From Escherichia coli (GTDB taxonomy: Bacteria; Pseudomonadota; Gammaproteobacteria; Enterobacterales; Enterobacteriaceae): a stretch of 64,000 bases of DNA. The translations under genes and the position numbers were made by a program. This document shows, in pieces, positions 3,683 to 20,328 of this stretch (the stretch's first letter is position 1; every line of letters begins with the position of its first letter). The notes beneath the pieces were generated by a model, which saw nothing but the letters and a program-made list of their open reading frames with translations, did not search any database and was not told the origin of the DNA. The DNA is taken from NCBI RefSeq assembly GCF_003790525.1, contig NZ_CP033635.1; one strand, written 5' to 3'.

Positions 3683-3847
3683 GACAACTCCGGCAGGATA
3701 CTAAAGGCCGCAAGTGTAACGCGAATCACGCGGCGGGCAAATATCCGAACGCCAGGAGCGAAGATAAAGCAAAGTAAAAAGCCTCGCATTCGGCGAGGCT
3801 TTATAGCGAGATTGAAGCGTATTCACACTTCAGATCAGTGGATTCGA

Positions 3848-4057
3848 TCAGATAGCTGTTACGTTAACAGCTGCCGGACCTTTCTGGCCGTCCTGAATTT
3901 CGAACTCAACGTTCTGACCTTCAGCCAGAGTTTTGAAGCCATTACCCTGGATAGCGGAGAAGTGTACGAACACGTCTTTGCTGCCATCAGCCGGAGTAAT
4001 GAAGCCAAAACCTTTAGACTCGTTGAACCACTTAACCTGACCTTTAATCTTTGCCAT
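3848..4057 (-). CDS. cspC: Cold-shock protein CspC
   Basis: 69-aa CSD protein, [20 protein letters not shown]. Confidence 0.95.
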
Positions 4058-4069
4058 TTGAAAAATTCC

Positions 4070-4213
4070 TTAGATTGTTTTCTTCGCCCGCAGGCATAAC
4101 ATAGATAAAACTGACACATTACTGCATGAGGCACCAATATAAGGCTCGGCAGAGAAGCGGTATTCAACGTCAACGTGTTTACTCAGGACTTCTTTACTGA
4201 AAATGCCACACAT
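4070..4213 (-). CDS. yobF: Small protein YobF (not in ORF track)
   Basis: Manual reverse-strand translation gives a 47-aa [50 protein letters not shown] directly upstream of cspC. Confidence 0.85.
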
Positions 4214-4882
4214 AAACAGAACTGTACCTCGTTTAACCCGAAATCTGTTATCACATACAACGTTAATTATGGCAAGCCATTTTTAAACATGTCTCGATCA
4301 GACGCACAAATCTCGATACGTCTTCCACTTTTTTTGCACACTTATGCAACGGAATACGCGCCGATATATCATTGTGCTTAACCTTGCCAGTTCAGGCAGA
4401 TACTTAAACTGACGTATTTTCTAACATAGTTCAATAAGTTCAGTTGTTCCATGCCAATGGGAGAAGTTATTACATAGTGCGTGCAATATCACATTTTCTG
4501 CTATGCAATGAATAAAAAGTTATATCACTTTTTCTCATAAAACAGTCAGTTAACGGCCATCAATCACCCCAAAGAGAAGTCAATCGCCAAAGGTATTGTA
4601 AATTTAAAATAAGAAAAATTGATGAATGCGCAAAAAAATCAAGAGAGAAACGTTTCGCTAATAAATAATACCACGCTTAATCACAAATCCGATGTAAACA
4701 TCCTAATAAATTAATGGGCTAAATATCTTTTTCTGATATCCCGTTACGCAAATAAATAATATGATAATTATTTGAAGTCAGACCAGAGTTTTAATTTGAA
4801 GCAGTTGCACCATGACAGTGCGTATAATCAGGATGAATTGAGTAACCCTTCAACGACGGGGTTACTCAAGATTGAGGAAGGA

Positions 4883-9389: not shown

Positions 9390-11438
9390 TTACTTGACGG
9401 GAGCGGGTTGTTCCGCGGGTCTGGCTTTTTCAAGCTTCGCCAGATCGAGTGCGATATTCACCGTCTCATCCAGATAAGGATCTGGCTCCTGGTAATCTTT
9501 CGGTAGATCATCCAGTTTCTTCAACTCCGGTTTACCTTCGCGTTTAAAGCGTTCGTTCAAACGCGCCAGACGCGTCGCATCATCTTCATTATTCTCTTTC
9601 TCACGCACAGCGTAATTCAGAGAAACGATATTGCGCTTGTCCTTCATAGCGTTGAAGCGTGCGATATCCTTCATGATGTTCTGGAACTCAGGATCTTTCG
9701 CGATACGCGCATTATGTTCCTTCAGCAGCTCCGGTTCAAAGGCCGTTAAATCTCCTGATTTCACATAAGTCGCGGCATCAATGCTATCCCACGGCAGCGC
9801 GTTATCTTCGAATTTCTCACCCGTTTCCGTTTCTTCATTACCCGTCGGCATGATGATGTCTGGCGTTACGCCTTTACGTTGCGTACTGCCGCCGTTAACG
9901 CGATAGAATTTCTGGATCGTGTACTGCACAGATCCCAGCGCTGGCCATTCAGGACGTAACATCTGATCGTAGATACGGTTCAATGAACGGTATTGCTGAA
10001 CGGTGCCTTTACCAAACGTCGGTTCACCCACAACCAGCGCACGACCGTAATCCTGCATTGCCGCGGCAAAGATTTCTGAAGCCGAAGCACTGAAACGGTC
10101 AACCAGTACCACCAGCGGGCCTTTATAGAAGACCTGTCCGTCGGTATCGCTGTCTTCACGAACTTTACCGTTGTTATCACGGACCTGAACAATCGGGCCG
10201 GATGGAATAAACAGACCGGAGAGCGATACCGCTTCGGTCAGCGCCCCACCACCATTGCTACGCAGGTCGATGATGACGCTGCTGACATTCTGTTTTTCCA
10301 GTTTCTGCAGCTGTACTTTGACATCATCTGTCAAACCCACATAGAAGCCCGGAATATCCAGCACGCCGACTTTCTCTTTACCGACGGTCTTCACCGACAT
10401 TTTAACCGCGCGGTCTTCGAGACGAATACGTTCACGGGTCAACGTTACAGTACGGGTCTTGGTCCCTTTACCAGCAGGTAAAATTTCCAGACGAACTTTA
10501 CTGCCCTTCGGCCCTTTAATTAAGGCAACCACATCATCAAGACGCCAACCAATCACGTCAACCATCGGCTTGCCTGTTTGACCAACACCGACAATTTTGT
10601 CACCAACGCTGATAGCTTTACTCTTCGCTGCCGGGCCACCTGCCACCATCGAATTGATAACGGTGTAGTCATCATCCATTTGCAGCACTGCGCCAATACC
10701 TTCCAGCGACAAACTCATTTCAGTGTTGAACTGTTCGGTATTTCGCGGGGAAAGATAGTTGGTATGCGGGTCGATTTCACGCGCAAACGCCGTCATTGCC
10801 AGCGAGAAAACATCTTCGCTGTTGGTTTGCGCCAGACGACGAATGGCAAATTTGTAGCGGCGAGTCAGGGTTTCACGAATTTCTTTATCCGTTTTTCCTG
10901 CCAGCTTCAGGCTTAACTCGTCGAATTTGACTTTACTGTCCCACAGCGCGTTCAACTCAGCCTCGTTTTTCGGCCAGGGCGCTTTGCTGCGGTCAAGGTT
11001 ATAAGTGTCGTTGCCGGTGAAATCCATCGGCTTTTCCAGTACCGACAAAGCGTACTGGTAACGTTCAAAACGACGCTTTTGCGCCAGATTGTAGAGATCG
11101 TAGAAAACGTCGAGTTTGCCTGAACGCAGTTCATCGCCTAACTCGGTTTTCTTTTTCGCGAACTGTTCAACATCGCTTGCCAACAGCACGTTGTGGCTGT
11201 AATCGAGCAGATTCAGGTAGCGGTCAAAGATTTTGGCCGAAAATGCCTGATCGAGGTCGAACTGGCGATAATGAGAACGGGTGAAGCGCGACGTTACGCG
11301 CTCACTTACCGTCGCATGCTGCGTCTCTTCCTTTAATACCGGAATTTGATCAGCACGCGTGATATCTTCTACAGCGAAGGTCTGGCCTGCTATTGCAAGC
11401 AGGCCAGCTAACGCGGTAAGCCTAAAAAACATGTTCAT
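9390..11438 (-). CDS. prc: Tail-specific periplasmic protease Prc
   Basis: 682-aa product starting MNMFFRLTALAGLL (signal peptide); internal start of the 698-aa track ORF. Confidence 0.95.
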   Translation of the reverse strand: MNMFFRLTALAGLLAIAGQTFAVEDITRADQIPVLKEETQHATVSERVTSRFTRSHYRQFDLDQAFSAKIFDRYLNLLDYSHNVLLASDVEQFAKKKTELGDELRSGKLDVFYDLYNLAQKRRFERYQYALSVLEKPMDFTGNDTYNLDRSKAPWPKNEAELNALWDSKVKFDELSLKLAGKTDKEIRETLTRRYKFAIRRLAQTNSEDVFSLAMTAFAREIDPHTNYLSPRNTEQFNTEMSLSLEGIGAVLQMDDDYTVINSMVAGGPAAKSKAISVGDKIVGVGQTGKPMVDVIGWRLDDVVALIKGPKGSKVRLEILPAGKGTKTRTVTLTRERIRLEDRAVKMSVKTVGKEKVGVLDIPGFYVGLTDDVKVQLQKLEKQNVSSVIIDLRSNGGGALTEAVSLSGLFIPSGPIVQVRDNNGKVREDSDTDGQVFYKGPLVVLVDRFSASASEIFAAAMQDYGRALVVGEPTFGKGTVQQYRSLNRIYDQMLRPEWPALGSVQYTIQKFYRVNGGSTQRKGVTPDIIMPTGNEETETGEKFEDNALPWDSIDAATYVKSGDLTAFEPELLKEHNARIAKDPEFQNIMKDIARFNAMKDKRNIVSLNYAVREKENNEDDATRLARLNERFKREGKPELKKLDDLPKDYQEPDPYLDETVNIALDLAKLEKARPAEQPAPVK

Positions 11439-18934: not shown

Positions 18935-19591
18935 TTATTGCAATTGCACAAGAGTCAGTTCGCCCCCAAAGACAGCACCTGTATCAATATAATGCAGGTT
19001 GCCAATATCCACGCGATGGCGCAACGGTGTATGACCAAACCAGAAATGATCAGCACCTGTAATTCCCTGCCCTTTTTGGCGTTCACCTAACCGCGAGCGG
19101 CTCCACAAGACCTGATGCAAATCGACGTCCTTTTGCCATTCATAAACATCATCCGGATAATCGGCATGGGCAATAACATGTTTGCCGGTGCGACTGTGTA
19201 CTTCAAGAATAAAGGGCAAATACTGACATTTTTCCAGCGCCGTTTTCGCTTGTTTCTGTTGATAATCTGCCAGCGCAATAAACCAGTTGCCGCCATTCAT
19301 CAACCACAAAGACATCTGCTGGGATGCCAGCGCATCCATCGCCATCTGTTCATGATTGCCTCTTACCGCACGAACCCAATGTTGTTCCAGTAACTGCAGA
19401 CAACGTAAACTTTGCTGCCCACGATCGATAACGTCTCCCACTGAGATAAGTAAATCTCGCCACGGATCAAAACGACAATGCCATAATTTGCGGCGCAACT
19501 GCTCAAGACAACCGTGTATATCGCCTGAAAGCCAGATATGTCGCCATTGATGACCCGCAATTCTCTGATAAACGGGCGCAGGCTGTTTCAT
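18935..19591 (-). CDS. pphA: Ser/Thr protein phosphatase 1
   Basis: 218 aa with calcineurin-like metallophosphatase motifs GDIHG, GNHE. Confidence 0.9.
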   Translation of the reverse strand: MKQPAPVYQRIAGHQWRHIWLSGDIHGCLEQLRRKLWHCRFDPWRDLLISVGDVIDRGQQSLRCLQLLEQHWVRAVRGNHEQMAMDALASQQMSLWLMNGGNWFIALADYQQKQAKTALEKCQYLPFILEVHSRTGKHVIAHADYPDDVYEWQKDVDLHQVLWSRSRLGERQKGQGITGADHFWFGHTPLRHRVDIGNLHYIDTGAVFGGELTLVQLQ

Positions 19592-19699
19592 CAATATTTT
19601 CCTCCCGCGCTAAAGATCACATAATCTTAACAAGAATGTTAAAAAACGCTGGACTCAGACAGTAGAGTGTGTGTTATGGTTGACTATAAAGTCAGCGAA

Positions 19700-19958
19700 G
19701 GGAATGCTTCTGGCTTTTAACAGATAAAAAGAGACCGAACACGATTCCTGTATTCGGTCCAGGGAAATGGCTCTTGGGAGAGAGCCGTGCGCTAAAAGTT
19801 GGCATTAATGCAGGCTTAGTTGCCTTGCTCTTTAAGAATAGATGACGACGCCAGATTTTCCAGTTTGCGTGCAAAATGGTCAATAAAAAGCGCGGTGGTC
19901 ATCAGCTTAAATGTTAAAAACCGCCCGTTCTGGTGAAAGAACTGAGGCGGTTTTTTTA
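19700..19958 (+). ncRNA. ryeA: Antisense small RNA RyeA (SraC), approximate bounds
   Basis: Known to overlap sdsR on the opposite strand; plus-strand intrinsic terminator (ccgcc...ggcgg then T-tract) at about 19920-19958. Confidence 0.45.
19736..19828 (-). ncRNA. sdsR: Small RNA SdsR (RyeB)
   Basis: Reverse-strand sequence GCAAGGCAACTAAGCCTGCATTAATGCCAACTTTTAGCGC...GGTCTCTTTTT recognised as SdsR; lies between pphA and yebY. Confidence 0.75.
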
Positions 19959-19986
19959 TTGGAAATCAAAAGGCTATTTTAGGTAA

Positions 19987-20328
19987 TTAACAGAGTTTTT
20001 CAGCTCGTTCTATAAACGGTGCCAGACTCATTTTTTCGCCGGGATTGTTAGGATCATTAATCTGAATCACCGAAATGGGTTGGGCTTTAGTCTTCCCACT
20101 GGCAACTTCCTTTTGTGCGATATCGTTTAAAGGATACTGCACGAGGGTACTTGGGTTGATGACATACAAAGCATTACCCGGTCGGCAAGTCAGCATCACC
20201 TCTTCGCGATTAAACGCCCATTTGTCTTTACCCACTTCAAAACGGCTGACGGTAATCACCTGCGGTGCAGCCAGCGCCGCTGCAGAACTGGTGAGTAACA
20301 GAAACGCCAGAATACTTTTTTTCATCAT
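19987..20328 (-). CDS. yebY: Lipoprotein YebY
   Basis: 113 aa with signal peptide. Confidence 0.85.

Follow-up and report, generated by a model that had tools for sequence, protein, structure and literature searches.

The sdsR/ryeA locus of Escherichia coli, known since 2001, has been studied thoroughly. In K-12 MG1655 it consists of ryeA (b4432, 272 nt, plus strand) and sdsR (b4433, 104 nt, minus strand), which lie between pphA and yebY. The sigma-S dependence of sdsR has been demonstrated by in vitro transcription (PMC6610125), by ChIP-seq, with a sigma-S peak at ryeB (PMC4447067), and by work in Salmonella (PMC3333887), whereas ryeA was transcribed in vitro only by the sigma-70 holoenzyme (Choi 2019, PMC6610125). 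SdsR and RyeA degrade each other, ryeA interferes in cis with the transcription of sdsR, a dicistronic sdsR-pphA transcript exists, and pphA in K-12 owes most of its expression to transcription reading through the sdsR terminator (Choi 2019, PMC6610125). The ryeA-ryeB pair has also been reported as the top RNase III-dependent cluster of sRNA-associated double-stranded RNA in stationary phase (PMC7373196).

The SdsR/SraC pair of Salmonella (Frohlich et al. 2012, 2016) agrees with that of E. coli in the architecture of SdsR, in the sigma-S logic of its promoter and in its place downstream of yebY, and the two RNAs are inversely expressed (PMC3333887). Other pairs are similar in mechanism. In the type I pairs Sib/Ibs and Rdl/Ldr and in the type VIII system creTA, a perfectly complementary antisense RNA likewise neutralises its partner, and RNase III degrades the duplex. 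In contrast to these, both SdsR and RyeA are non-coding, the “toxin” is an Hfq-associated, trans-acting regulator of the sigma-S regulon, and the locus adds transcriptional interference and read-through control of pphA.

We have analysed this locus in a stretch of 64,000 nucleotides of E. coli DNA (contig NZ_CP033635.1), here called the window. There is very little doubt that the window contains the canonical E. coli sdsR/ryeA locus, that is, two convergent and fully overlapping non-coding RNA genes on opposite strands; it is an already known, intact and ordinary locus. Our own analysis covers sequence identity, boundaries, promoter boxes, terminators, folds, conservation and strand asymmetry. 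What is said about expression, Hfq dependence, targets, RNase III cleavage, interference and read-through into pphA comes from published experiments in K-12 and Salmonella.

Identity and layout of the locus

The annotation of K-12 MG1655 could be carried over to the window by a gap-free alignment, which is colinear over 3.5 kb with 98.4% identity and in which the synteny with pphA and yebY is kept. The features of the locus are as follows.

18935-19591, minus strand: pphA (phosphoprotein phosphatase 1), from the list of open reading frames; K-12 pphA maps here with 644 of 657 positions identical; downstream of sdsR
19672-19680, plus strand: sigma-70 promoter of ryeA, with the -10 box TATGGT at 19675-19680 and TG at 19672-19673; starts at 19686-19688
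19688-19959, plus strand: ryeA (sraC), about 270 nt, transferred from K-12 b4432 (272 nt); covers sdsR fully in antisense
19727-19828, minus strand: sdsR (ryeB), from RF00111, K-12 transfer and identity; K-12 b4433 maps to 19726-19829
19727-19760, minus strand: Rho-independent terminator of SdsR, an 11-bp stem (19760-19732) and a U tail, from the consensus terminator scan and folding
19835-19862, minus strand: sigma-S-type promoter of sdsR, with the -35 box TGGAAA at 19862-19857, a 16-bp spacer and the -10 box TATTCT at 19840-19835
19916-19957, both strands: putative bidirectional intrinsic terminator, with the hairpin at 19916-19955, from folding on both strands
19987-20328, minus strand: yebY, with its stop codon at 19987, from the list of open reading frames and K-12 transfer

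A scan of the whole window with the Rfam covariance models gave three matches at the gathering threshold, two of them at this locus. RF00111 (SdsR_RyeB) matches 19825-19726 on the minus strand over its full length (positions 1-100 of 100 in the model); the score of 114.4 bits (E=1.8e-21) is far above the gathering score of 38, and the alignment contains no non-canonical pair. RF00101 (SraC_RyeA) matches 19722-19866 on the plus strand, also over the full model (1-145 of 145), with 176.1 bits against a gathering score of 37 (E=1.5e-40). About 100 of the 145 positions of RF00101 are plain antisense of SdsR, and the model also exceeds its threshold in Hafnia and, with 47-157 bits, in Yersinia, Serratia, Dickeya, Shewanella and Paraglaciecola; since it mirrors SdsR and scores wherever SdsR exists, the RyeA match is not independent evidence of a RyeA gene. 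The predicted RyeA gene is instead supported by a promoter, a transcription start and a terminator that are identical to those mapped experimentally in K-12.

The sequence-only reading had recognised SdsR on the minus strand, had placed RyeA opposite to it between pphA and yebY, and had proposed the covariance models as a check. Both strands and both flanking genes turned out as it said, and both models score far above their gathering thresholds. It also described the pair as a known locus without an entry among the open reading frames, which agrees with the two K-12 genes at this position and with the RefSeq/PGAP annotation of 100%-identical genomes, where only yebY is listed under the match and the RNA genes are left blank. 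The interval it gave, 19700-19960, is essentially correct, but begins 12 nt inside RyeA (19688) and leaves the ryeA promoter, with its -10 box, outside.

The intergenic region between pphA and yebY is 396 bp long. Of 5426 complete E. coli genomes, 5425 contain a match to it, and many strains, E. coli SMS-3-5 among them, have a haplotype 100% identical to that of the window. Since the yebY stop codon (19987) and the sdsR start (19828) are on the same strand, sdsR lies directly downstream of yebY, which is where it has always been found (Frohlich 2012, PMC3333887). It is wholly contained within ryeA, and the overlap amounts to 102-104 bp.

The Rfam scan also found the cspA thermoregulator (RF01766) at 3773-4233 on the minus strand, with 137.6 bits (gathering score 78), corresponding to a cold-shock-protein gene with its leader. 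Judging from the map distance to ryeA in K-12, this gene is probably cspC.

Transcript ends, promoters and differences from K-12

The published start of sdsR, one nucleotide downstream of the annotated end, corresponds to 19828 in the window, and the published 3' ends at +100 to +102 correspond to 19729-19727 (Choi 2019, PMC6610125), which gives a mature SdsR of about 102 nt. The RNA is significantly stable (-32.5 kcal/mol, z = -4.0), and its minimum-free-energy structure has a 5' hairpin, a central GGCUCU/AGAGCC hairpin and the 11-bp terminator stem, i.e. the three-hairpin fold of the family. The terminator by itself folds with -15.8 kcal/mol (z = -3.1) and is identical to that of K-12.

According to Frohlich 2012 (PMC3333887), the features of a sigma-S promoter include a C at -13, a G or T at -14, a C at -8, an A/T-rich discriminator and a 16-bp spacer. 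Upstream of sdsR we read -13C (19841), -14T, -8C and a TAA discriminator, so that the predicted promoter carries every one of these hallmarks. The -10 box TATTCT is the hexamer that was exchanged for CTCGAG in the oligonucleotide PM_SdsRR, a mutation that abolished SdsR (Choi 2019, PMC6610125). Across 112 sequences the -13C is 99% conserved and the -35 box 83-97%.

For RyeA, the processed 5' end, which is the most downstream of three starts, falls on 19688, and the 3' RACE ends at +261 to +270 fall on 19948-19957 (Choi 2019, PMC6610125). The -10 box TATGGT is likewise the hexamer that was replaced by CTCGAG, in the oligonucleotides RyeA-p3 and PM_RyeAF, with loss of RyeA as the result (Choi 2019, PMC6610125), and we infer that TGtTATGGT is an extended -10 element. 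The motif TGNTATGGT has two matches in the window against 1.4 expected, which is not statistically unusual, and the assignment of the -10 box therefore rests on the published mutagenesis oligonucleotides and not on motif statistics.

The plus-strand terminator that the sequence-only reading had positioned for RyeA does exist, and the published 3' ends of RyeA fall on it. The hairpin at 19916-19955 is followed on the plus strand by seven T (19951-19957) and has a folding energy of -20.0 kcal/mol (z = -4.9). On the minus strand the same hairpin lies 30 nt past the yebY stop codon and has a tail of five U (-19.8 kcal/mol, z = -6.3), and on either strand none of 200 shuffled sequences was as stable. 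We infer that the terminator is bidirectional and, from its position behind yebY, that it also ends the yobA-yebZ-yebY transcript. A consensus terminator scan returned the SdsR terminator only; the RyeA/yebY terminator was missed because its stem has a bulge, and it was recovered by folding.

Compared with K-12, the 396-bp intergenic region has five substitutions, at 19702, 19829, 19855, 19893 and 19908, none of which is in mature SdsR, in a -10 box or in a terminator. Position, strands and lengths of the two genes (Rfam clan CL00105) are also the same as in K-12. Divided by segment, the identities are:

19592-19687: spacer between pphA and ryeA, with the ryeA promoter, 96 of 96
19688-19725: RyeA-only 5' part, 37 of 38
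19726-19828: SdsR/RyeA overlap with mature SdsR, 103 of 103
19829-19870: sdsR promoter, 40 of 42
19871-19915: RyeA 3' part, 43 of 45
19916-19959: terminator, 44 of 44

The substitution at 19702 is position +15 of RyeA, and those at 19893 and 19908 are in the 3' part of RyeA. The remaining two belong to the promoter region of sdsR: 19829, a T in the window, corresponds to -1, and 19855 to -27, which is within the spacer. Neither position is constant among species, the base of the window being present in only 18% and 10% of the sequences, respectively, and the two substitutions could change the strength of the predicted sdsR promoter.

A promoter scan of the minus strand gave two sigma-70-like sites in the region, where 1.0 +/- 0.9 were expected. 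One of them, TTGACC-17-GAAAAT at 19883-19855, precedes the normal start of sdsR by about 20 nt, and the final T of its -10 hexamer is owed only to the substitution at 19855 (A here, G in K-12, where the hexamer is GAAAAC). It is probably a chance occurrence. Neither of the two sites is the experimentally mapped sdsR promoter, and both were rejected as such. One could imagine that the completed sigma-70-like site, together with the substitution at -1, would give this lineage a sigma-S-independent and 5'-extended isoform of SdsR; if this were true, the isoform would be made in growing cells and shift the balance between SdsR and RyeA, but we regard it as a very improbable outcome.

Conservation, strand asymmetry and split loci

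For the comparison across species, 120 loci were collected from contigs of one genome per species by an exact SdsR core pattern, and 111 of them were usable. The 23-base pattern lies within SdsR, so that a conservation of 100% in columns +35 to +63 follows from the selection itself, which puts the central hairpin outside the covariation test. Conservation is high over the sdsR promoter and the body of SdsR, and collapses in the 5' part belonging to RyeA alone, directly after the SdsR 3' end; a poor conservation of the RyeA-only flanks was also reported by Frohlich 2012 (PMC3333887).

The two strands differ in how well they keep the fold. In 67 distinct homologues, the share of canonical pairs among the Rfam SdsR pairs is 98.7% in the SdsR sense and 91.9% in the RyeA sense, where it is lower because G-U pairs turn into A-C mismatches on the other strand. 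In the window the RyeA alignment has two non-canonical pairs and the SdsR alignment none, and the mirror hairpin on the RyeA strand is weaker than the SdsR terminator (-11.1 against -15.8 kcal/mol). The terminator stem contains compensatory changes, in pair 74-92 from GC to CG or TA and in pair 77-89 from TA to AT or CG. The strand asymmetry and the compensatory changes indicate that selection acts on the SdsR fold. This agrees with the view of SdsR as the primary conserved product and RyeA/SraC as its lineage-variable antagonist (Frohlich 2012, PMC3333887).

Outside Enterobacterales, SdsR homologues score 62-87 bits against RF00111, which is above the threshold. The matches are:

L028 9565-9667: SdsR homologue in Shewanella
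L051 9643-9745: SdsR homologue in Shewanella
L064 2041-2143: SdsR homologue in Shewanella
L108 4103-4204: SdsR homologue in Shewanella
L095 11011-11110: SdsR homologue in Paraglaciecola

They share the core UAGCGCACGGCUCU..AGAGCCAUUCCCCU and have a divergent 5' hairpin, a compensated terminator stem and a -10-like box (CTAcACT/CTATACT) upstream. A literature search on SdsR in Shewanella found no paper; being above the Rfam threshold, the Shewanella sequences are members of the known family and not something new.

Closer to E. coli, the SdsR of Salmonella arizonae is 95% identical, while what follows the sdsR 3' end in Salmonella is unrelated to the sequence of the window. In Salmonella and Shigella the SraC promoter is about 35 bp further upstream, which makes SraC longer (PMC3333887). 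The sequence past the sdsR 3' end in E. albertii (L005, about 10628-10668) is also unrelated to that of E. coli (19700-19725 in the window). The RyeA 5' part and the ryeA promoter, as they are found in the window, appear to be specific to E. coli and Shigella, which fits a repeated replacement of DNA at an attachment-site hotspot.

The locus is split in about 237 of 5425 complete E. coli genomes (~4%), and the break points were inspected in two of these. In E. coli CFSAN027343 (L124, NZ_CP037943.1) a lambdoid prophage of about 47 kb, carrying an integrase, an excisionase, recET, ralR and the effector gene nleG7, is inserted between pphA and sdsR, at the sdsR terminator. Its junctions (2873-2904 and 49675-49706) share an att core that corresponds to approximately 19725-19756 in the window, which are the terminal ~30 nt of sdsR. 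With the copy carried by the phage, the 3' end of sdsR is restored intact apart from two substitutions, and the ryeA promoter and pphA are displaced 47 kb from sdsR. The insertion site mirrors the hotspot of Salmonella phage PhiW104, whose integration site, according to the articles that cite the original work, lies in the terminal 23 bp of ryeB (Balbontin 2008, as cited in PMC7380047 and PMC3603311). In the second genome, E. coli FDAARGOS_944 (L123, NZ_CP065613.1, 6225-6280), an IS1A element interrupts sdsR after the position corresponding to 19819, about 9 nt into the gene, and the neighbouring copD (yebZ) is annotated as a partial pseudogene. The window has neither a prophage nor an IS1 insertion at sdsR/ryeA.

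Function of the pair and its interpretation

By analogy with the published experiments, the SdsR of the window (~102 nt, minus strand) would be transcribed from its sigma-S-selective promoter in stationary phase and under stress, fold into three hairpins, the last of which is its Rho-independent terminator, and act in trans as an Hfq-associated base-pairing repressor. Its targets would include the mRNAs of tolC, yhcB and mutS, which are known from E. coli; in Salmonella ompD is a target. The list of targets is not fully settled, since mutS did not behave as a primary SdsR target in Choi 2019 (PMC6610125). RyeA (~270 nt, plus strand), made from a sigma-70 promoter in exponential growth and perfectly complementary to the whole of SdsR, would keep SdsR off in growing cells by two routes. 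The duplex of about 100 bp would be cut by RNase III, which destroys both RNAs, and convergent transcription of ryeA would hinder, in cis, transcription from the sdsR promoter at initiation as well as during elongation. Most of the pphA mRNA would come from transcription running past the SdsR terminator, and pphA would thus be under the same control by sigma-S and interference, but would not be affected by RyeA RNA supplied in trans. Nothing in the sequence of the window contradicts this canonical explanation.

Three other readings have to be weighed against it. That the resemblance to sdsR/ryeA is due to chance or to an artefact, with no real RNA genes in the window, has practically no probability; E-values of 1.5e-40 and 1.8e-21, the identity of mature SdsR to the mapped K-12 gene at 103 of 103 positions, and the synteny with pphA and yebY rule it out. 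RyeA could also be imagined as a small mRNA that acts through a micro-protein and not by antisense pairing, as there is an open reading frame of 38 amino acids with a TTG start at 19820-19936 (plus strand) inside RyeA, and short ATG frames of 13-14 codons show up in a three-frame translation. When the sequence was read directly, none of these frames had a convincing Shine-Dalgarno sequence at a proper spacing. The RyeA-only regions are poorly conserved across species (10-60% identity per column), the annotation of K-12 has no coding sequence here, and mutation of the ryeA promoter altered very few genes beyond the sdsR/pphA circuit (Choi 2019, PMC6610125). The small frames were thus rejected as genes, having neither a credible ribosome-binding site nor conservation, and a role of RyeA as mRNA is highly unlikely.

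The third reading is that the pair is in the first place a type VIII toxin-antitoxin module, with SdsR as an RNA toxin that arrests or kills the cell through repression of yhcB and RyeA as an RNA antitoxin that chiefly neutralises SdsR. It has more to be said for it, but we still find it rather unlikely. Choi 2018 and 2019 call SdsR the toxin and RyeA the antitoxin, with the toxicity exerted via yhcB, SdsR-RyeA is one of the two type VIII loci that TADB 3.0 gives as validated by experiment, and the overlap on opposite strands that this database demands (a distance below 0 bp) is present in the window with 102-104 bp. On the other hand, the toxicity in K-12 came with overexpression of SdsR, which normally reaches some 300 copies in a stationary-phase cell and does not kill it (PMC3333887), and the rise of SdsR without SraC was only about 1.5-fold (Frohlich 2012, PMC3333887). 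An obligate antitoxin would be expected to vary together with its toxin, but SdsR is conserved over Enterobacterales and into Shewanella while the RyeA-specific sequence and promoter are not, and the prophage-bearing E. coli, where the ryeA promoter is 47 kb from ryeA and sdsR is intact, are evidently viable strains. The physiological relevance of SdsR toxicity is doubtful, given the poor conservation of RyeA. The type VIII reading differs from the canonical explanation in emphasis and not in molecular mechanism, and because RyeA is poorly conserved and there are natural strains without the native arrangement of the ryeA promoter, we regard it as a secondary framing.

As a discovery, the canonical sdsR/ryeA locus of the window is of little importance. 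The pair is also a reminder that for mirror-image sRNA pairs, a covariance-model match on the second strand is no independent proof of a second RNA. The value of the finding is in annotation, where two RNA genes, two promoters and a putative bidirectional terminator are gained in a gap of 396 bp that the track of open reading frames had left empty.
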